In this document: positions 20,924-35,854 of the stretch, piece after piece
Position numbering within the stretch: the first letter of the stretch is position 1
Layout: each line of letters begins with the position of its first letter
Origin: Promethearchaeota archaeon
Lineage (GTDB): Archaea; Asgardarchaeota; Lokiarchaeia; Sigyniarchaeales; SOKP01
NCBI GenBank assembly: GCA_048941385.1
Contig: JBHLNR010000003.1
Coordinates: forward strand, 333 to 64,332
Direction of reading: 5' to 3'
DNA length: 64,000 nt
Position numbers and translations under genes: made by a program
The notes under the pieces: generated by a model
Told to the model about the DNA's origin: nothing
Databases searched by the model: none
The model's input: the letters and a program-made list of their open reading frames with translations, nothing else

Positions 20924-21028
20924 AGGCCCGTGGCCTAGTCTGGATAGGGCGGCAGCCTCCTAAGCTGAAGATCATAGGCTTCTGTAACCTAAGATCAGAA
21001 ATCGGGGGTTCAATTCCCCTCGGGCCTG
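20924..21028 (+). tRNA. tRNA-Arg (anticodon CCU) with a ~30-nt intervening sequence 3' of the anticodon stem
   Basis: Acceptor AGGCCCG (20924-30) / CGGGCCT (21021-27). D arm GCCT-AGTCTGGATA-GGGC. Anticodon arm GCAGC-CTCCTAA-GCTG with CCT at 20959-61. T arm GGGGG-TTCAATT-CCCCT. Discriminator G; no encoded CCA. About 30 extra nt (approx. 20968-20998) lie between the anticodon stem and the variable loop. Confidence 0.85.
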
Positions 21029-23763: not shown

Positions 23764-26700
23764 ATGACTGCTTCAAAAGAAAAATTGACATCTGGGACAT
23801 TAGAAGAAAGATACAAATTAATATTAGAAAGTCAAAATGATCTCGTTTATATAATCAATCAGAAATTAGAGATTGAATATTGCAATGAACCAGTTTTTAA
23901 ACGAGTTTTAGGGTATACAGAAGAAGATTTAAAGAGAAATAAAATTCTATTTGCAATCCATCCCGAGGACAAAAAAGAAGCCCTTCAAGCTATAAAGGAA
24001 GGAATAAAAAAGAAAGAAGGTGTTGCAACGTTACGTCTAAGAGATAAAAAGGGGGAATACCATTTTCATGAGTTTACGGGAAAATTGTTTACTGATTATG
24101 ATGGAACACAAAAGGCTTTGATTATTGCAAAAGACATTTCTTCACACATTAAATCTGAGATAGGATTAAAAGAATCGGAAGAATTGTATCGCTTAATTTC
24201 AGAAAATTCTAATGATTTGATTAGAATTTTTGATAAGAATTCAACATATCGATATGTTAATGAAGCGACACATCTTAAGCAACTTGGCTATACCCGGGAT
24301 GAATTAATCGGTATGCCTGCAAAAAATATACTTCATCCTGACGAAGAAGATGAATATAATAAAGATTACGAAATTTTAATATCAACAGGAGAAATGAGAA
24401 GAGAAGCAAGAGTGTTGCATAAAGATGGACATTGGGTATGGTTTGATATTTGGGGAAAAGTGATTGATAATACAGAAGAGAATTGGAGAGGTATAATCAT
24501 ATCAAGAAATATTGATGAAAGGAAGAAGGCAGAAGAAAAATTTAAGAAGTTCTTTAAAGGTAGTCCAATTCCAACTTATGCATGGCAAAAAGTCGGGGAA
24601 GATTTTATATTGATTGATTATAATGATGCTGCTGTAAAAATTACCCAGAGTGGTGTTGAGAAATTCATAGGTGTTAAAGCTTCTGAAATGTATAGAACCC
24701 GATCCGAACTTTTAGAAGATATAATGAGATGTTTTGAGGAAAAAGTAGATATCGAGCATGAAATGAAATATATAATGGAAATATCCAAACAAGAAAAAGA
24801 TTTACTTGTAAAATATGTCTTTTTACCTCCAGATTTGGTTTTAGTTCAGACTGAAGATATTACTGACCGGAAAATTGCTGAAGAAAAAATAAAAGAATCA
24901 GAAGAAAAATACAGAACTCTTTCAGAACAATCCTTCCTAGGCATAGCAATTTTACAGGATGATTTTATTCGATATGTAAATAAACAACTTGCTTCTACGT
25001 TTGGATATTCAATTGAAGAAATAATGGCTTGGGGTCAAGGTGGTTTTCTCAATGTAATATATCCTGAGGATAGAATCATGGTTGCTGAACAAGCAACAAA
25101 GAAACAACAAGGAGACTCAGATATTATCAACCAATATCAATTTAGAGGGATAAGGAAAAATGGGGATATCATTTGGTTAGAGGTATTTTCAAAAACTATT
25201 ACTTATAGGGGAAAACCAGCAGATTTTGTTACAATTCATGATATAACCGACGAGAAAATAACTGAACAGAAGATCAAAGAATCTGAAGAAAAATACCGCA
25301 ATTTATTTAACAATGCTCCATTTGCGATAGTCCTTTTCACTATTGAGGGAATCATCTTAGATTGTAATGACAGTACTCAGAAAATCACAGGATATTCTAA
25401 AGATGAGCTTATTGGCCATAATTTTAAAAACTTTAATTTCTATGTTGATCCAACTTCTGCAAATTTAGAAGAAAGAACTGCAAAGACTAGTGCAGGTAAA
25501 ATACCTGAAGTTAGAGAAATTCAATTGTATAAAAAAGAGGGGACTCAATTTTGGGCTAGAACACATATAGAATTTATCTATTTGAGAGGAGAAACTTATA
25601 TTCAAGCAATCCTGCATGATGTTACAGAACAAAAAGAATCAACCATTAGACTTAATGAATCAGAAAGCCGTCTCCAAGAAAGAGTAAACGAGTTAAATTT
25701 TTTGTACGGAATTTCTGAGATAATAGAAAGTCAGAATTTATCATTAGAAGATCTCATAAATGAAGTTGTCATTTTAATCCCTACAGCAATGCAATTTCCA
25801 GATAGAGCGAGGGTTCAAATAAAATTTGATCGACAGGAATTTAAATCTCATGATTTTAGAGCAACTAGGTGGAAATTGGTAAATCATATTACTATTAATG
25901 AGAAACCATTAGATATAGAAATATTCTATTTAGAAGATAAACCATTCCTTCCAGAAGAAGAAAATTTAATTATTGAACTTGGAAAAAGATTAAAAAACTT
26001 CCTTGAAAAGAAGGAATCAGAACAGGAGAGAAGGATTGCTCAAGAAGAGCTGAAGGAATCCTATGAAAAGCTGAAAGAACTTGAAAAAATTATTAATAAT
26101 AGTCCTGGTATAGGGATTCTGTGGAAAAATTCAGAAGGATGGCCTGTGGAATTTGTTTCTGATAATGTAAACCAATGGGGATACACTCCACAAGAATTTT
26201 ATTCTGGAAACGTGATTTATGCTGAAATAATTCATCCTGATGATTTGGAAAGAGTTACGGAAGAAGTGGGTTATTATAGTAATGAAGATATAAATGAATT
26301 CGTTCAAGAATACAGAATCATAACTAAATCGGGCGAAGTAAAATGGTTAGATGACAGAACCTGGATTCGAAGAGATTCAAATGGAAATATTACTCATTTT
26401 CAAGGAGTTGCATTTGATATTACTGATCGGAAAATTGCTGAAGAAGCTTTAAAAGAGTCAGAAAAAAAATTTAAAGAAGCCTATGACCAAGCAAGCTTTT
26501 ATAAAGACCTTTTTACACATGATATTAATAATATCCTTCAAGTTGTAAATTCTTCAGCTGAACTCATTTCTTACCAATTAGGTAGTTCTGAGAAGTCGAA
26601 AGATATCTCGAATATTGCGAATATTATTAAAAAACAAGTAGATCGCGGATCTAAACTAGTTTCTAATGTTAGAACCCTATCTATAATTGAAGATGAGCAA

Positions 26701-27180
26701 TTTTCAACTAAATCTTTAGAGATCTCGAGATACTTAGAGAATTCAATTGATTTTATAGAGAAAACATATGAAGATAGAAATGTAAAAATTACGGTTGATG
26801 GTTTAAATGGAAAATATGAAATTCTTGGGAATGAGCTCATACAAGACGTTTTTGAAAATATATTAATTAATAGTATAAAATACAATGAAAATCCTAATGT
26901 AGAAATTGCGATACGATTATCAAAAATCAAAATAGATGATAAAACTAATTTCAAAATTGAGTTTAGTGATAATGGTATTGGAGTTCCTGATGATAGAAAA
27001 ACAGCGATTTTCTTAAGTGGAAATCGAGAATTTAAGGGTAGGAAAGGAATGGGATTAGGGCTTTCATTGGTGAGTAAGATTTTGAACCTATTTAATGGAA
27101 AGATCTGGGTTGAGGATAAAATTAAAGGTGATTACACTCAAGGGAGCAATTTTATATTAGTTTTACCTGAAGCTAAATAG
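23764..27180 (+). CDS. Cytoplasmic multi-PAS / GAF-like sensor histidine kinase
   Basis: 1138 aa, no TM segments. At least five PAS-like modules are separated by the recurring linker DITDRKIAEE(K/A)IKESEEKYR. H-box FTHDINNILQV. ATPase N/G boxes NSIKYN, DNGIGVP, GMGLGLSLV. No response regulator in the window. Confidence 0.85.
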   Translation: MTASKEKLTSGTLEERYKLILESQNDLVYIINQKLEIEYCNEPVFKRVLGYTEEDLKRNKILFAIHPEDKKEALQAIKEGIKKKEGVATLRLRDKKGEYHFHEFTGKLFTDYDGTQKALIIAKDISSHIKSEIGLKESEELYRLISENSNDLIRIFDKNSTYRYVNEATHLKQLGYTRDELIGMPAKNILHPDEEDEYNKDYEILISTGEMRREARVLHKDGHWVWFDIWGKVIDNTEENWRGIIISRNIDERKKAEEKFKKFFKGSPIPTYAWQKVGEDFILIDYNDAAVKITQSGVEKFIGVKASEMYRTRSELLEDIMRCFEEKVDIEHEMKYIMEISKQEKDLLVKYVFLPPDLVLVQTEDITDRKIAEEKIKESEEKYRTLSEQSFLGIAILQDDFIRYVNKQLASTFGYSIEEIMAWGQGGFLNVIYPEDRIMVAEQATKKQQGDSDIINQYQFRGIRKNGDIIWLEVFSKTITYRGKPADFVTIHDITDEKITEQKIKESEEKYRNLFNNAPFAIVLFTIEGIILDCNDSTQKITGYSKDELIGHNFKNFNFYVDPTSANLEERTAKTSAGKIPEVREIQLYKKEGTQFWARTHIEFIYLRGETYIQAILHDVTEQKESTIRLNESESRLQERVNELNFLYGISEIIESQNLSLEDLINEVVILIPTAMQFPDRARVQIKFDRQEFKSHDFRATRWKLVNHITINEKPLDIEIFYLEDKPFLPEEENLIIELGKRLKNFLEKKESEQERRIAQEELKESYEKLKELEKIINNSPGIGILWKNSEGWPVEFVSDNVNQWGYTPQEFYSGNVIYAEIIHPDDLERVTEEVGYYSNEDINEFVQEYRIITKSGEVKWLDDRTWIRRDSNGNITHFQGVAFDITDRKIAEEALKESEKKFKEAYDQASFYKDLFTHDINNILQVVNSSAELISYQLGSSEKSKDISNIANIIKKQVDRGSKLVSNVRTLSIIEDEQFSTKSLEISRYLENSIDFIEKTYEDRNVKITVDGLNGKYEILGNELIQDVFENILINSIKYNENPNVEIAIRLSKIKIDDKTNFKIEFSDNGIGVPDDRKTAIFLSGNREFKGRKGMGLGLSLVSKILNLFNGKIWVEDKIKGDYTQGSNFILVLPEAK

Positions 27181-27181
27181 C

Positions 27182-27763
27182 TTAAATATTATTTTTTTCC
27201 ATCCATTCATCTTTAAAAATAGCAAACTGATGCATATCAACATATTCACCATCTACAAAAAGTTCCTCTCTCAACACAGTTTCTTCTTTGAATCCAAGCT
27301 TTTCTGCTACGCGAAGTGATCTTCTGTTTGGATTATAAACACCTGCACAGATCTTATGGAAATTTAGCTCAGTAAATCCATATTTTATTAATAAATTCGC
27401 AGCCTCACCAACTAAGCCTTTTCCCCAATCCTCTGGTTCTCCGATAACTGCAGAGATGAATGCGTTCCTGTTTATCCAATTAATCAAAAAGAACCCTATT
27501 GTACCTATTGGGCGTTTATCTGCTTTATGATAAATTACAAAAAATATGACCTCTCTTGTACCTCGTTCTGACGGAGGTTCAAACCAGCTTTTTATCTGCT
27601 CCGGTATCATAGGCATGTCGTGTCGAGCTAAATGTCTTACTCTTGGATCATTATTCCACTTACAATATAAATTAACCCATTTAGAACTTTGAGCAACTAG
27701 ATCAATCCTCTCTCCCTCAATAAAAGGGAAAACACCATCTTCTTTGTCTTCTTTATCAATCAA
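27182..27763 (-). CDS. GNAT N-acetyltransferase, RimJ/RimL-like (paralog 1 of 4)
   Basis: 193 aa. Pattern FPFIEGE-IDL...W-NDPRV...IG-IGF--INW-NRNA...GEPE-WGKG...A---L--YGF-ELN-HKI. Confidence 0.8.
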   Translation of the reverse strand: MIDKEDKEDGVFPFIEGERIDLVAQSSKWVNLYCKWNNDPRVRHLARHDMPMIPEQIKSWFEPPSERGTREVIFFVIYHKADKRPIGTIGFFLINWINRNAFISAVIGEPEDWGKGLVGEAANLLIKYGFTELNFHKICAGVYNPNRRSLRVAEKLGFKEETVLREELFVDGEYVDMHQFAIFKDEWMEKNNI

Positions 27764-28350
27764 TCAATATCACCTTTTATCTTCTCTTTTTCAGTTTTCA
27801 TCCACTCTTTTCTAAGAATTGCAAACTTATGAATATCAAAATACTTTCCGTCGATGTAGATATGTTCCTTTTGGACACCCTCCTTTTTCAACCCTAATTT
27901 TGCAGCAACTCTAAGAGATCGTTGATTTGGATTATGAATAGAGGCATTGATTTTGTGGAAATTCAATTCAGTAAATCCATATTTTATCATTAATTCTGCA
28001 GCTTCTACAGCTATACCTTTTCCCCAATATTCTGGTTCTCCTATCTCTGTAAATATATTGGCATTTCGATTCACCCAATTAATGCGATTAAAACCAATAC
28101 TTCCAATAGGGCGTTGATCCCTTTTATGAAATATTATAAATATAATGAAATCTCTTATTCCTCTTGGGGGATTTTCGAACCATTTATTTACCTCCTCAGG
28201 GATAATAGGAAATTCATGCCTTGCATATTGACGAACTCTGGGATCGTTCTGCCATTTCGCATATAAATCTGCCCATTTAGAATTTTGAGCAACCAAATCT
28301 ATTGTTTCTCCTTGAATAAAAGGAAAAACAGATTCCTCTTTATCATTCAT
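27760..28350 (-). CDS. GNAT N-acetyltransferase, RimJ/RimL-like (paralog 2 of 4)
   Basis: 196 aa, roughly 60% identical by eye to paralog 1. 4-nt overlap with it. Confidence 0.8.
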   Translation of the reverse strand: MNDKEESVFPFIQGETIDLVAQNSKWADLYAKWQNDPRVRQYARHEFPIIPEEVNKWFENPPRGIRDFIIFIIFHKRDQRPIGSIGFNRINWVNRNANIFTEIGEPEYWGKGIAVEAAELMIKYGFTELNFHKINASIHNPNQRSLRVAAKLGLKKEGVQKEHIYIDGKYFDIHKFAILRKEWMKTEKEKIKGDID

Positions 28351-28365
28351 TCTCTACCACCACAT

Positions 28366-28959
28366 TTATTGATTATTTTTCTTTCTATTAATCCAATCTT
28401 CCTTTAATAAGCGGAAGGTTTTATTATCTAGATACTTTCCATCCACATAGATTGACTCCTTTTCAATACCCTCTAAAGTAAATCCAATCTTTTCAGCAAC
28501 AGACCATGAAGCAATATTATCAATTATTACACCCCCATGAAGCTTATTCAGATTTAATTCTCTGAAAGCATAATTAACTAATAATACAGTCGCTTCTGTA
28601 GCAATATTCTTTCCCCAATAATCTTTCTCTCCAATCCAAATATATGCATTCGCCCATCCATTTACCCAATCTATATGTCCTAATCCTATTCTTCCAATAG
28701 GCTTTTTATCTTTTTTATGCCATATTTCAAAAGAAACATGTTCCTTAAACTCAATTTGTGGGGTATCATATCTTTCTTTTTGTTCATCTAGGGTTCTTGG
28801 AATTACATTTCGGGAATATTTTCTAACAATGGGATCATTTTTCCATTTAGCATATAATTCTGCATGCTTTGAGTTTAATGCGCAAAGATCCAAGTTCTCT
28901 CCTTGAATAAATGGAAAGTGATCAATTATCTGTTTTTTATCATTATCTTGTTCTTCCAT
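28366..28959 (-). CDS. GNAT N-acetyltransferase, RimJ/RimL-like (paralog 3 of 4)
   Basis: 197 aa. Same architecture but more divergent (HIDWVNGWANAYIWIGEKDYWGKNIATEA). Confidence 0.8.
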   Translation of the reverse strand: MEEQDNDKKQIIDHFPFIQGENLDLCALNSKHAELYAKWKNDPIVRKYSRNVIPRTLDEQKERYDTPQIEFKEHVSFEIWHKKDKKPIGRIGLGHIDWVNGWANAYIWIGEKDYWGKNIATEATVLLVNYAFRELNLNKLHGGVIIDNIASWSVAEKIGFTLEGIEKESIYVDGKYLDNKTFRLLKEDWINRKKNNQ

Positions 28960-28961
28960 TA

Positions 28962-29537
28962 TTACTGATCACCTTGAAGACTTAGCCATTCTCTTTTTAA
29001 AATTGAATATTTTAGAGCATCTATATACTTTCCATCAATATATATCTCTTTTTTTAAGGTTAATTCATGCTTAAAACCATTTTTTTCAACTACTTTAACT
29101 GAGGATACATTTGGAGTAAAAACTGTCGCATTTATTTTATTAAAGTTCAGTTCATTAAATCCGTATTCTACAACTAGTTTTGCAGCTTCTGTAGCAAATC
29201 CTTTACCCCAGTATTCGGGTTCTCCAATTAAATAGAACAGAAATGCATTTCTATCAAGCCAACGAATATCAATAAAACCCGCATATCCTATGGGTTTTTC
29301 ATCTGCTTTATGCCATATTTCAAGAAAGATCTCAGATTTCATAGTTTCTTGTTTAGGTTCAAACCATTTTTTTACCTCTTCTATAATTTGAGGGAATTCA
29401 TATCTTGCATACTTTCGAATTCTTGGATTATTCATCCACCTAGTATACAGATTAATATGCTCTGTATTAGGGGGACAGAGATTAATATCTTTTCCCTCAA
29501 TAAATGGAATACTTTTCTTACCTTTGTCTTCTTCCAT
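28962..29537 (-). CDS. GNAT N-acetyltransferase, RimJ/RimL-like (paralog 4 of 4)
   Basis: 191 aa. Same architecture (IDIRWLDRNAFLFYLIGEPEYWGKGFATEA). 2 nt from paralog 3. Confidence 0.8.
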   Translation of the reverse strand: MEEDKGKKSIPFIEGKDINLCPPNTEHINLYTRWMNNPRIRKYARYEFPQIIEEVKKWFEPKQETMKSEIFLEIWHKADEKPIGYAGFIDIRWLDRNAFLFYLIGEPEYWGKGFATEAAKLVVEYGFNELNFNKINATVFTPNVSSVKVVEKNGFKHELTLKKEIYIDGKYIDALKYSILKREWLSLQGDQ

Positions 29538-30260: not shown

Positions 30261-30830
30261 TTATAAATTTAAGCGCATAACATAGAAATTCTTAAATTTT
30301 TTATAAACTACAAATCCTTCAGACTCATACATCGATACTGGTCCACGATAACTATGTGCATCTGATAGATCACCTACTCTCGGGTATGATTCAATAATGT
30401 CGTATCCTTCATTTTTATAATGAGTAATTGCATGATTTAGGAGCTTTCGAGCTATACCTTGCTTTCTATGTGTATGACCAATTAAAAAACAAACAATTCC
30501 CGCAATCTGTTTCCCTTCAGAATCTGCTATATCGTATTCATAAAGCTCTTTAGCAAAATTTTCTCTTGAATTTATATTACACCACCCAATAGGTCTATCT
30601 TCTAAATAAGCTAGAAATCCATGCATTACTCCTGAGATGATCAAATTGATTGAAGCATCACGATTATCTTCTTTTGTTTGATTTCCCCAGTTCTTATTAC
30701 TTCCAGCAAAATGATAATATCGACAATAACATCCTGACCAATCAGGATTGTCAGCAAAACCAACATTTTCAAAGAAAAAAATCCAATCATCAAGCAGATC
30801 CGAACTTAAGGATTTTATAATTAGTGCCAT
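30261..30830 (-). CDS. GNAT family acetyltransferase (different subfamily)
   Basis: 189 aa with the acetyl-CoA motif HRKQGIARKLL and the typical GNAT beta4-alpha3 spacing. Confidence 0.7.
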   Translation of the reverse strand: MALIIKSLSSDLLDDWIFFFENVGFADNPDWSGCYCRYYHFAGSNKNWGNQTKEDNRDASINLIISGVMHGFLAYLEDRPIGWCNINSRENFAKELYEYDIADSEGKQIAGIVCFLIGHTHRKQGIARKLLNHAITHYKNEGYDIIESYPRVGDLSDAHSYRGPVSMYESEGFVVYKKFKNFYVMRLNL

Positions 30831-32632: not shown

Positions 32633-34192
32633 CTAATACTTGTCGTCAATGCTAGAAAGCATTGATTTCAACTGATCAAATATATCAATCCGAAAATCAT
32701 CCCCTATTCTGAAAAAAAGTAAGTCAACTGCTTTTTTATCAAGATAATCATCAACGTTTAATTCTCCAATAATCTGTGACCAACTAGTACTTTCCAATGC
32801 TCTAATTCCAATCAAAATAACACCATTATCTTTAATATTATTGATTATTTTTATTATAATCTCCTTCCATTCAGTTTCAACGCGCTCCTTATCTCTGGCA
32901 TCAAAAATGCAAAACACACCATCAGAACTAGAAATATCATCAGCGGCAGAATATAAATGTTGTTTTAGTATCAATCCATTTGAATATTGGAAGACTTGTT
33001 CGTCATCATAATCTCTTACCGTTGCACTTTCTCCTAATTGTTTAATTTTAACAAATGTTTGTAGTCCTGGACTCCACGTATTATTCTTTGTAATAAATGA
33101 AAGAGTAAGAACTATTTTTTTATTTAAGATGGATAATATTTTTTCATATAGCATGTCACTCCTTCTACTATCTTCAATTTCTTTACTTTTCATTACGTAG
33201 TGATATGAGATCAAGTTAAAAGCATCCTCTATATTCTCTCCCGTCAAAGCACTTGTTTCAATATAAGATAATTTGGTTTTTTCATTTTCTGATATTTTAT
33301 TTGCTAATTTCACACCTTCTTGATAAAATATTTGACGTTCATCGCTTAGATCTGACTTATTACCAACCAAAACAATAGGCAGTTCCTCATCAGTAGTGAA
33401 CTCTTTTAATTCTTCATACCATTCTGTTATTTTTTCAAATGATTCCCGTTTAGTCAAATCGAAAACAATGAAAGCCGCCTGTGTTCCAGTGTAATATGAC
33501 TTCCTAAAACGACGAAAATATTTCTGAGCCCCCAGGTCATATAAGGTGACCCCAATTTCATTTCCAAAAAATTCAAATGTATGTGTCAAAACATTCAGTC
33601 CAATTGTTGCTCTATAATCGTGCGAAAACTTTTTTTCAACAAATCTACGGATAATTGACGTTTTTCCTACCTCATGATTTCCAATAATTACGAATTTAAA
33701 ACGGTATTCTCCCCTTGTCGTCATCTCCATTTGATAAAGTTGATTTTTTAACCTTTGAACATTCTCGGCTTCGTATTCAAAATTAGGGACTGAAACTTGA
33801 ATTAGATCGCCTTCTTCAGCAGTTAAAATCTGAGCCGTTTTTTCAGCTAAAAATAAACCATAAGGTGATAGCTTCTCGATTGAGGCCATGCTATCTAAAA
33901 CTAGGCTTAATATTCGTTCCTCATCAACTGATATAAACAAAAGGCGATGTTCTTCTGTGTCAAAACTTGCATTTCCGAATTTCTTGAAAGCGAATTCATT
34001 ACGCATACGCTGTAAAACAGGATTGACAATAGAAGTTAAAACAGATACTAATTCAATATCAACATCTTTTCTCTTTTCACCTGCAATGATTAATCCTTCA
34101 CTATCTGAGACAATTACAGCTTCAACTTCTTGATTTATCTTGAGAAATTTAGTAAAGAAATCAATAAATAACTTGTTTTTACGTACAACCAA
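32633..34192 (-). CDS. Roadblock/LC7 domain - Ras-superfamily GTPase - C-terminal degenerate domain fusion (paralog A)
   Basis: 519 aa. Roadblock-like N-terminus (VEAVIVSDSEGLIIAGEKR...VSVLTSIVNP...LLFISVD). GTPase G1 GNHEVGKTS, G3 DLGAQ, G4 GNKSDL, G5 ETSALTG. About 170-aa C-terminal domain. Confidence 0.8.
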   Translation of the reverse strand: MVVRKNKLFIDFFTKFLKINQEVEAVIVSDSEGLIIAGEKRKDVDIELVSVLTSIVNPVLQRMRNEFAFKKFGNASFDTEEHRLLFISVDEERILSLVLDSMASIEKLSPYGLFLAEKTAQILTAEEGDLIQVSVPNFEYEAENVQRLKNQLYQMEMTTRGEYRFKFVIIGNHEVGKTSIIRRFVEKKFSHDYRATIGLNVLTHTFEFFGNEIGVTLYDLGAQKYFRRFRKSYYTGTQAAFIVFDLTKRESFEKITEWYEELKEFTTDEELPIVLVGNKSDLSDERQIFYQEGVKLANKISENEKTKLSYIETSALTGENIEDAFNLISYHYVMKSKEIEDSRRSDMLYEKILSILNKKIVLTLSFITKNNTWSPGLQTFVKIKQLGESATVRDYDDEQVFQYSNGLILKQHLYSAADDISSSDGVFCIFDARDKERVETEWKEIIIKIINNIKDNGVILIGIRALESTSWSQIIGELNVDDYLDKKAVDLLFFRIGDDFRIDIFDQLKSMLSSIDDKY

Positions 34193-34267
34193 AGATACTC
34201 TCCAGTTTATTTTATCTTCAATATGATAATTTTGCTTATTATTCTTTATTATAACTATAAGATTTTT

Positions 34268-35854
34268 TTAAAGATATTTAATTGTGTTAAGCATTACTTT
34301 AAGTTGATCATAAATTTCCAACCTATATTCTATTCCAATTTTGAAAAACAACAAAGATATCATTTTTTGTTCCAGTAACTCATTTACATCAAATTCTTCC
34401 ATTATTCGGGACCAGTTTGTTTTTTCACTTACTCTTATGCCTATTAAAACTACTTTATTCTCCTCTAGATCGTTGATAATCTTTACTACAACATCCTTCC
34501 ACTCAGGCTCTATATGATCTTCATAACGGGCGTCAAAGATGCAAAACACACCATCAGATTTGGATACATCAAAATTTTTATAAAGGAAATTTTTAATCAT
34601 TACACCATTAGAAAACTTGTATATTTTCTCATTATACTCATCTTTTATCTTCTCTAGTTTGTACTCACAATTAATATCTGAGAGAATTTGTAATCCTGGA
34701 CTCCAGAATTCGTTTTCTGATATAACAGTTAATGTTAACAGGTTTTCTAAATTTACGCCTTGTTTCATTCTTTTTTCTAATATTAAGTTTTGCTCCTCTA
34801 ATAGATCGAGTTTTAATCTATCCTCTTCTTCTTGCTTACTTTGAGATATATAATGATATGCTATTAATGTAAAGGCGTCTTCTACGTTTTCTCCAGTTAA
34901 CGCACTGGTTTCGATGTAGGAAGCTTTAATATTCAAGTTTTTAGAAAGCTCGCTAACTAAATCCACACCCTCCTGGTAAGTAATTGCTCTTTGATCCCGT
35001 AAATCTAATTTGTTTCCGATGATAATGAGAGGAATTTTTCTTTGATCAATAAATTTTTCTAATTCCCCATACCAGTTCATTACATTATCAAATGATTGTT
35101 TTTTAGTTATCTCAAATACAAGAAACGCAGCCTGTGCACCTAGGTAATATGTTTGACGGAATCTTGCAAAGAATGATTGAGCACCTATATCCCACAGACT
35201 ATAGGCAACTTTATTCCCATAAAACTCTATATTATGACTTAAAATATTTAATCCTATTGTTGCGCGATAATCATGGGAAAACTTATTCTCCACAAATCTT
35301 CTCACTAAGGATGTTTTCCCCACTTCATGATCTCCAATAATAACAAACTTGAATCGATAAGTACCCCCTTGGTCTAATCTCATTTGATATATTTGATTTT
35401 TAACCCTTTCCTCGGTAACAGAAGCATCAGTTTCATATTCAAAATGAGGAATCGTCATCTGTATGTTGTCACCTTCCTCTGCATTAAGTATCTGAACCGC
35501 TTTTTCTGCTAGGAGATATGCATAAGGCGAAGCTCTATCAACAGAGGCCATATTATTTAGAACAACACTTAACGTTCTTTTTTCATCCAGGGAGATAAAT
35601 AAAAGGCGATAAAATTCTGTATCAAAACTGGCAGTTCCAAACTCTCTGAAAGCGAATTCATCACGGATCCTTTCTAAAATAGGATTGATAATTGAAGTTA
35701 AAACTGATACTATTTCCATATCAATATCTTTTCTTTTTTCACCAGCTATGACTAATCCCATCTGATCACTTACAATGACAGCTTCTACATCCTTATTAAT
35801 TTCCAAGAAAAGGTTAAATATTTTTGTAAAAAGTTCATTTCTATTTATTGACAA
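34268..35854 (-). CDS. Roadblock/LC7 domain - Ras-superfamily GTPase - C-terminal degenerate domain fusion (paralog B)
   Basis: 528 aa, collinear with paralog A (roughly 55-60% identity by eye). G1 GDHEVGKTS, G3 DIGAQ, G4 GNKLDL, G5 ETSALTG. Confidence 0.8.
   Translation of the reverse strand: MSINRNELFTKIFNLFLEINKDVEAVIVSDQMGLVIAGEKRKDIDMEIVSVLTSIINPILERIRDEFAFREFGTASFDTEFYRLLFISLDEKRTLSVVLNNMASVDRASPYAYLLAEKAVQILNAEEGDNIQMTIPHFEYETDASVTEERVKNQIYQMRLDQGGTYRFKFVIIGDHEVGKTSLVRRFVENKFSHDYRATIGLNILSHNIEFYGNKVAYSLWDIGAQSFFARFRQTYYLGAQAAFLVFEITKKQSFDNVMNWYGELEKFIDQRKIPLIIIGNKLDLRDQRAITYQEGVDLVSELSKNLNIKASYIETSALTGENVEDAFTLIAYHYISQSKQEEEDRLKLDLLEEQNLILEKRMKQGVNLENLLTLTVISENEFWSPGLQILSDINCEYKLEKIKDEYNEKIYKFSNGVMIKNFLYKNFDVSKSDGVFCIFDARYEDHIEPEWKDVVVKIINDLEENKVVLIGIRVSEKTNWSRIMEEFDVNELLEQKMISLLFFKIGIEYRLEIYDQLKVMLNTIKYL

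Follow-up and report, generated by a model that had tools for sequence, protein, structure and literature searches.

A 64,000-nucleotide stretch of the contig JBHLNR010000003.1 (in the following, the window), from a genome assembly labelled as Promethearchaeota archaeon, carries on its minus strand two adjacent paralogous genes, which we call A (the 'upstream' paralogue) and B (the 'downstream' paralogue). Each encodes a protein in which a roadblock domain, a Rab-like G domain and a further domain, predicted to be a G fold stripped of nucleotide-binding motifs (a pseudoGTPase), follow each other on one chain. Proteins of this form make up a family in which, at most of the loci surveyed, the same two paralogues stand on the same strand in the same order. 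On balance we lean towards A and B being the two subunits of a single GTPase switch.

The two co-directional open reading frames of 519 and 528 amino acids (aa), 75 nt apart, that had been described in an initial annotation of the window were recovered with the same coordinates on the minus strand (Table 1), and the by-eye estimate of 55-60% identity from end to end agreed with a full-length BLASTP alignment of A and B (527 columns, of which 55% are identical and 79% positive, E = 0). The two proteins are most alike in the roadblock domain (64% identity) and the G domain (61%), less so in the last domain (46%) and least in the connector helix (29%). The orthologue of gene A in locus L001 is 95% identical and that of gene B (P0121) 94% identical, and the two window genes belong to the upstream (UP) and downstream (DN) clade, respectively. 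The window has a G+C content of about 32%, a GGAG lies 8 nt 5' of the start of gene B, and we infer that A and B are co-transcribed. The two genes also share a reading frame, with one TAA and 25 sense codons between them (window 34193-34270, minus strand). A read-through fusion of A and B was considered, but because the frame relation is not conserved in locus L002 the shared frame is probably due to chance and not to programmed read-through.

By scanning one genome per species we found 206 relatives and fetched 80 loci, 72 of which had enough flanking sequence to be informative. Homologues number in the hundreds, are 500-545 aa long and all have the same layout. Nearly all of them come from metagenome-assembled genomes (MAGs) labelled Promethearchaeota or Lokiarchaeota, and the family appears to be confined to Promethearchaeota (Lokiarchaeia). 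Orthologues more than 75% identical to those of Lokiarchaeia also occur in several MAGs with the labels Hod-, Thor-, Hermod- or Odinarchaeota, and because of this identity these other Asgard labels are probably unreliable. Locus L043 (DATKTW010000108.1) was deposited as 'Candidatus Nanopelagicaceae bacterium' and protein P0286 as 'Candidatus Bathyarchaeota archaeon'; all of these records are probably mis-binned or mislabelled.

The second paralogue is situated directly downstream on the same strand in 57 of the 72 informative loci (median gap 118 nt), and in seven further ones it follows, again on the same strand, after 0.8-4.8 kb. Both copies are therefore present on one strand and in a fixed order in 64 of 72 loci, an outcome in line with the adjacency of orthologues which the initial annotation had proposed to survey. 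In an outgroup-rooted neighbour-joining tree the upstream genes of the crown group, without exception, make up one clade and the downstream genes the other, which indicates one old duplication with the gene order fixed ever since. Within each clade, the three globular domains of either paralogue have a column conservation of 0.78-0.86, and the 12 differences fixed between the UP and DN clades are all conservative, so neither copy is in decay. As for the spaced pairs, locus L042 (7757-10641) has a 3.25-kb same-strand insert between the paralogues, also present in L043 and L046; it holds genes for a free-standing Ras/Rab-like GTPase of 180 aa and for two proteins of 377 and 358 aa without a Pfam match.

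Both chains contain the complete small-GTPase core that had been read from the sequence: Pfam Ras (PF00071) matches each of them over aa 166-330 with 147-149 bits (cut-off 21.6, E about 1e-43), and motifs G1, G2, G4 and G5 are intact while G3 is derived. The nearest solved relative in a phmmer search against the PDB is the Thorarchaeota Rab 7ezb (E 8e-35), followed by Rab14, Rab11 and Rab8. In Foldseek, the G domain of the full-length AlphaFold2 (AF2) model of A matches Rab8, Rab6, Rab11 and Rab5 with target-normalised template modelling (TM) scores of 0.74-0.80 at 32-36% identity. Since the nearest relatives are Rabs and Pfam Gtr1_RagA gave no match to A or B, the G domain is Rab-like and not Rag-like. 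It is placed mid-chain in a protein of about 520 aa, and a C-terminal Cys prenylation motif is missing from both proteins (A ends in ...NTIKYL, B in ...SIDDKY); by these defining features A and B are not true Rabs. The G1 pattern GxxxxGK[ST] is present in both, with G174, G179 and K180 invariant, and the switch I (G2) threonine T199, the NKxD motif (N281-K282-x-D284) and the ETSA motif (E315-T316-S317-A318) are invariant in 89 aligned members. The G3 motif DxxG is broken in A and B, where it reads D-I/L-G-A-Q, with Ala three positions after the Asp and Gly one position earlier. The alignment to 7ezb sets GDHEVGKT against GDGAVGKT and wdiGAq against wdlAGq, which in Ras numbering gives His12, Glu13, Gly59, Ala60 and Gln61. 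This is in accordance with the earlier description of both copies as having His at Ras G12 and a D-x-G-A-Q switch II with Ala at the site of Gly60. In the AF2 model, helix α1 and switch I of A (aa 181-204, window 35243-35314, minus strand) have a predicted local confidence (pLDDT) below 50, compared with above 90 in the motif-less C-terminal domain; low alignment diversity or a genuinely unusual P-loop region may be the reason.

The His/Glu P-loop and the D-x-G-A-Q motif are near-invariant in the crown group. Basal single-copy members (P0259, P0260, P0283 and relatives) possess all three domains, stand in a neighbourhood different from that of the crown group, and have GD[AE][GS]VGKT and D-x-G-[GS]-Q instead. 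Of the earlier claim on these deviations, the part stating that both paralogues have them in common was borne out, while the part treating them as a feature of the whole family has to be narrowed to the crown group. About 17 pairs, all from one subclade, are asymmetric: GDKAVGKS, GDSSVGKT or GDEAVGKS stands in the upstream copy, in some cases together with D-L-G-G-Q or D-V-A-G-Q, while the His P-loop and GAQ are retained in every downstream copy. Judged from the sequences, the deviations are derived and not ancestral, and the upstream copies of these pairs have reverted in the P-loop and sometimes also in switch II. An asymmetry which always goes one way is what would be expected of subunits with divided roles. 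Two of the basal members, in loci L081 (P0283) and L082 (P0260), each have a gene for a GluRS/GlnRS-type tRNA synthetase after them and, at a greater distance downstream, one for an Rce1-like (CPBP) membrane protease, so that their surroundings are conserved as well but are not those of the crown group.

The N-terminal segment of about 115 aa had been described as a Roadblock/LC7 (MglB-type) domain, and we accept this on the basis of family-wide profile matches and predicted topology. On the window proteins themselves Pfam Robl_LC7 (PF03259) gives weak matches of 13.2-13.4 bits against a gathering cut-off of 23 (E about 0.07), but it matches 21 of 32 diverse family members at E <= 1, with a best E of 2.2e-6, and MAPKK1_Int, the LAMTOR3/MP1 model, matches six of the same 32. 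A family profile run against the PDB ranked the roadblock protein 7yh1 first, weakly (E 0.095), for which reason the assignment was made from the Pfam matches across members combined with the predicted topology. In the full-length AF2 model, residues 5-123 of A are arranged as α-β-β-α-β-β-β-α, i.e. in the long MglB-type layout, with the helices (H) and strands (E) H5-19, E23-30, E35-40, H46-67, E74-78, E82-88, E93-100 and H105-123. The pLDDT of this domain is mostly 62-87, with one ten-residue block (aa 61-70) at 44. The linker that leads to the G domain is itself conserved: Q132, P136, F138, K152, Q154 and Y156 of A are invariant in two of the alignments, and P136, F138, Q154 and Y156 are still invariant in the 89-sequence alignment A4.

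Beyond the G domain of A, its helix α5 is predicted to continue into a connector, as a single helix of about 44 residues (aa 321-364) that leads into the third globular domain. When this C-terminal domain was modelled alone by AF2 from a 32-sequence alignment (A3), the model reached a pLDDT of 94.2 and a predicted TM-score (pTM) of 0.90, with the element order β1-α1-β2-β3-β3'-β4-α3-β5-α4-β6-α5 and a long helix in front. Foldseek returned 93 PDB matches at E <= 1e-3. The top ones were Plasmodium Arf1 (E 7e-6, TM 0.59), Rab3B and the Asgard Arf HodArfR1 (TM 0.58-0.61); the top GTPase matches overall had E 7e-6 to 1e-4, TM 0.5-0.61 and a probability of 1.00, and some three quarters of the 50 best matches were small GTPases, with identity to GTPases of only about 10%. 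None of GxxxxGK[ST], DxxG and NKxD occurs in aa 372-528 of A. At the site of the P-loop, the loop after β1 reads ENEFWSPG, of which the Trp and the Pro, like a Gln close by, do not vary in alignment A3. Pfam had no match for the domain, and an hhalign comparison of the family G-domain profile with the C-terminal profile gave a probability below 1%, so that the pseudoGTPase call is one made from predicted structure. An internal duplication recognizable at the sequence level was rejected on the same value. When 1.84 billion representatives were searched exhaustively with HMMER, only 46 proteins matched, all of them fragments or full-length members of this family, and no other architecture with this domain came up, bar one fusion to TPR repeats. 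A G fold without nucleotide motifs is thus supported at the fold level by the models; the initial annotation had read the same from strand spacing, and from its claim the predicted fold and the loss of motifs stood, while nothing of the relationship is detectable in sequence. The three-part anatomy proposed there, roadblock, Rab-like G domain and motif-less G-fold domain, was likewise retained, with the helical connector added to it.

It is known that roadblock domains pair in MglB, in Ragulator and in the C-terminal domains of Rag/Gtr. We favour, with modest confidence, a two-subunit switch in which the products of A and B would pair through their roadblock domains into a heterodimer, so that one platform would carry both G domains; relatives with a single copy would form a homodimer of that protein. 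This proposal draws on the conserved pairing of the genes, the dimerising habit of roadblock domains, a published prediction for a different Asgard pair (see below) and the covariation of distances between the paralogues. Pairwise distances among upstream and among downstream copies correlate with r = 0.93, and the partial correlation given ThiC is 0.82, compared with 0.58 and 0.54 for the two copies with the neighbouring RING gene. In H-Ras, the G60A mutation drastically impairs the intrinsic GTPase and shifts the protein towards state 1, which is inactive (PMC4867591). By analogy with Ras biochemistry, His12, Glu13 and Ala60 could be expected to slow intrinsic hydrolysis and the switch II transition, and they would exclude or hinder a classical arginine-finger GTPase-activating protein (GAP). 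With slow hydrolysis and no such GAP, switching would have to rely on the fused domains or on the partner in the dimer. Speculatively, the pseudoGTPase domain would serve as a fixed interaction surface, possibly for the RING-TPR protein encoded next to the pair.

Several points weigh against this reading. Eight of the 72 informative loci have a single copy, among them L051 and L065 with the downstream type only, and the distant members are single-copy as well, which indicates that a partner is not obligatory for the fold. The tree that separates the two clades is a neighbour-joining tree without bootstrap and with short deep branches. The covariation of A and B above that with their neighbours is suggestive only, because paralogues share constraints and contact is not needed to produce it. 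The whole neighbourhood, consisting of ThiC, ThiD, the RING-TPR gene, the pair and an isopropylmalate/isocitrate dehydrogenase, is syntenic, so the adjacency of A and B may partly reflect slow rearrangement. Flavodoxin-like folds are found among the Foldseek matches of the C-terminal domain at E of about 1e-4, with weaker scores. Finally, the full-length AF2 model has a pTM of 0.51, a pLDDT below 50 in the linker between roadblock and G domain, and low values in α1 and switch I. Given this pTM and the low-confidence linker we make no claim that the roadblock docks on its own G domain, and the model speaks neither for nor against an intramolecular control of the G domain by the roadblock of the same chain.

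The same synteny leads to an alternative in which the two paralogues are independent, each a homodimer or monomer with its own partners, and adjacent only through tandem duplication in a slowly rearranging stretch. Flanking genes are indeed conserved too (with counts of 69 loci for ThiD, 55 for ThiC and 76 for the RING-TPR gene), a separate tandem pair has arisen in L077, and the single-copy loci and distant members listed above are what independent proteins would lead us to expect. However, in the seven loci with insertions of 0.8-4.8 kb between the genes both of them, their order and their strand have been retained; the orientation of ThiD changes around the pair while that of the pair does not; the covariation between upstream and downstream copies exceeds that with neighbours; and the motif asymmetry always has the same direction. 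We regard independence of the paralogues as a real possibility, if clearly not the probable one.

Different objections concern the domains themselves. The G domains might not be switches at all but locked in one nucleotide state, like those of Rnd/RhoH-type proteins, so that the proteins would be scaffolds with G and pseudoGTPase domains as binding surfaces. The substitutions are at sites where Ras mutants lose hydrolysis (G60A impairs the intrinsic GTPase; PMC4867591), they are near-invariant in the crown group, and the same protein already has one G fold without nucleotide-binding motifs. Still, the invariance of Gln61, the switch I Thr, NKxD and ETSA would be unexpected if hydrolysis or switching had been abandoned, and the canonical motifs of basal members and of some upstream copies indicate that the family as a whole can probably cycle; we consider locked G domains unlikely. 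As for the C-terminal domain, it could be an unrelated flavodoxin-like or Rossmann-like α/β domain binding some small ligand. This is in agreement with the failure of hhalign to relate it to the family's own G domain (below 1%), with the low identity to GTPases (about 10%) and with Foldseek matches to flavodoxin, SsuE and FprA at E 1.5e-4 to 4e-4 and TM 0.44-0.49. Against it, small GTPases are the best and most numerous matches, filling roughly three in four of the first 50 places with TM values as high as 0.61, and three consecutive strands follow helix 1 with no helix between them, like the β2-β3 interswitch hairpin, which does not fit the strict β-α-β order of flavodoxins. By eye, there are also short local similarities to the G domain at β4, β5 and β6 (GVFCIFDAR and AAFLVFEIT, VVLIGIR and LIIIGNK), and altogether a flavodoxin-like domain seems to us very improbable.

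The gene divergent from A encodes a 194-aa protein with a RING finger (zf-RING_2, E 3e-6, 27.8 bits against a cut-off of 27.3) and TPR models. It is situated directly upstream of the pair in divergent orientation in 76 of 77 loci with enough flank, single-copy loci included, and is absent beside the distant single-copy members. ThiD is found near the pair in variable orientation, while the orientation of the RING-TPR gene is constant. General synteny explains part of this linkage, as ThiD and ThiC are also conserved nearby, and we regard the RING-TPR protein as a candidate partner of the pair by genomic association. One family member, the 894-aa P0242 (L083 1510-4194, ENA contig k141_377499), continues beyond the pseudoGTPase domain with a coiled coil and some seven TPR repeats. 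The fusion, seen on one contig only, is a possible link to the TPR neighbour. In a bolder form of the heterodimer reading, to which we would give only a small chance, A and B would be an obligate heterodimeric two-GTPase switch in which the roadblock platform and the pseudoGTPase domains replace a free GAP and guanine nucleotide exchange factor, His and Glu act across the interface, for which GTPases activated by dimerisation would be a parallel, and the RING-TPR protein reads the output. This would amount to a GTPase-to-ubiquitin-type module and to an independent Rag-like logic on a Rab-like scaffold.

Further away in the window there are four tandem GNAT paralogues arranged head to tail (27182-29537, minus strand; Acetyltransf_3, 191-197 aa each) and a fifth GNAT gene about 700 nt beyond them (30261-30830, minus strand), and many related loci also have GNAT homologues on the downstream side of the GTPase pair. 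The plus strand carries a gene for a sensor histidine kinase of 1138 aa that combines five or more PAS domains with a HATPase_c domain at its C-terminus (23764-27180), and a tRNA match which extends over 105 nt compared with the 71 positions of the model (20924-21028), which suggests an intron-containing archaeal tRNA gene.

Table 1. Coordinates in the window of genes A and B, their domains and motifs, and the divergent neighbour gene.
Feature	Position	Strand	Description and basis
Gene A ('upstream' paralogue)	34268..35854	minus	528 aa, TTG start; roadblock, Rab-like G domain, connector helix, predicted pseudoGTPase domain
Gene A roadblock/LC7 (MglB-type) domain, aa 1-123	35486..35854	minus	AF2 secondary structure; Pfam Robl_LC7 in relatives
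Gene A roadblock-to-G linker, aa 124-164	35363..35485	minus	Conserved in alignments; low pLDDT, one helix at 144-156
Gene A Rab-like G domain, aa 165-340	34835..35362	minus	Pfam Ras E 1e-43; PDB Thor-Rab E 8e-35; Foldseek Rabs
Gene A P-loop GDHEVGKT	35312..35335	minus	His at Ras-12, Glu at Ras-13; checked by translation
Gene A switch II WDIGAQ	35177..35194	minus	Gly at Ras-59, Ala at Ras-60, Gln-61 kept; checked by translation
Gene A connector, aa 341-371	34742..34834	minus	AF2; helix α5 of the G domain runs on into the last domain
Gene A predicted pseudoGTPase domain, aa 372-528	34271..34741	minus	AF2 model, Foldseek
A-B spacer	34193..34267	minus	75 nt
Gene B ('downstream' paralogue)	32633..34192	minus	519 aa, TTG start; four-part layout as in A
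Gene B roadblock domain, aa 1-123	33824..34192	minus	64% identity to the A roadblock; Pfam Robl_LC7 E 0.066 over aa 20-95
Gene B Rab-like G domain, aa 162-337	33182..33709	minus	Pfam Ras E 3e-43
Gene B P-loop GNHEVGKT	33659-33682	minus	Checked by translation
Gene B switch II YDLGAQ	33524-33541	minus	Checked by translation
Gene B predicted pseudoGTPase domain, aa 360-519	32636..33115	minus	Aligns with the A domain at 46%; member of alignment A3
RING-finger and TPR protein, 194 aa	36049..36633	plus	Divergent from A; Pfam zf-RING_2 and TPR models

Asgard archaea possess dozens of small GTPases of unknown function, which are central to ideas on the origin of eukaryotic membrane signalling. The present family is compact, strongly conserved and Lokiarchaeia-specific, and it joins a GTPase to a regulator fold and to a dead GTPase on a single chain, in a fixed gene pair. 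It offers natural substitutions at the Ras hot-spots 12, 13 and 60, for which canonical relatives from the same family could be used as controls, and its RING-TPR neighbour gives a hypothesis that links GTPase signalling to ubiquitin-like modification in archaea. That the three-domain form is uncharacterised, as had been supposed, is in agreement with our literature searches, which found no description of a protein with a roadblock, a Rab-like G domain and a pseudoGTPase domain, none of an Asgard pseudoGTPase, and nothing on a conserved pairing of this form or on the RING-TPR neighbour.

Small GTPases fused to roadblock or longin domains are themselves known in Asgard genomes (PMC10933270; bioRxiv 10.1101/2020.10.19.343400). 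In Prometheoarchaeum MKD1, 26 of 74 small-GTPase-related sequences are combined with such domains in the architectures RG, GR, LGR and XGR, and the operon pair WP_147663117/WP_147663118 was predicted by AlphaFold to form a heterodimer via the roadblock domains (Tran et al. 2024, PMC10933270). A and B share with these proteins the phylum, the combination of a roadblock with a Ras-superfamily G domain, of which N-terminal 'RG' forms exist, and the adjacent gene pair. The MKD1 pair, however, has the GR layout with a C-terminal roadblock, is Rag/Arf-like and consists of two domains, while A and B have an N-terminal roadblock, a Rab-like G domain and a third, motif-less G-fold domain. The MKD1 list has no code for 'RG' with an extra domain, but as the text of the supplement and its alignments are damaged by optical character recognition (yeast Ypt1 appears with 'WDVGAQ'), absence of the family from MKD1 is not proven.

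The resemblance to Rag/Gtr (RagA/B-RagC/D, Gtr1-Gtr2), which the initial annotation had put forward, is one of logic and not of descent. In both systems there are two paralogous chains with a G domain and a roadblock as the expected dimerisation surface, and in some lineages of our family also unequal nucleotide motifs between the two subunits. The analogy stands for this architecture and fails for the details, as the domains come in the opposite order, the G domain resembles that of Rabs, with Gtr1_RagA giving no match, and there is an additional pseudoGTPase domain. If the heterodimer is true, the two-paralogue design of Rag/Gtr arose more than once, and also on a Rab-like scaffold. The bacterial MglA/MglB system has in common with A and B a Ras-like GTPase and a roadblock fold, which in A is in the long form with a C-terminal helix as in MglB; there the two are separate proteins and the roadblock-fold dimer governs the GTPase, while A and B, encoded by a duplicated gene, each unite both folds in a single chain. 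In the known pseudoGTPases pG1/pG2 of p190RhoGAP, CENP-M and the dynein light intermediate chain, a G fold has lost its motifs and serves as an interaction module. The C-terminal domain of A and B is comparable to them as a predicted G fold without motifs, and differs in having no sequence relation to them, in being fused after an intact G domain and in being archaeal. By their defining features A and B are neither a Rag, nor an MglA/MglB pair, nor a true Rab.

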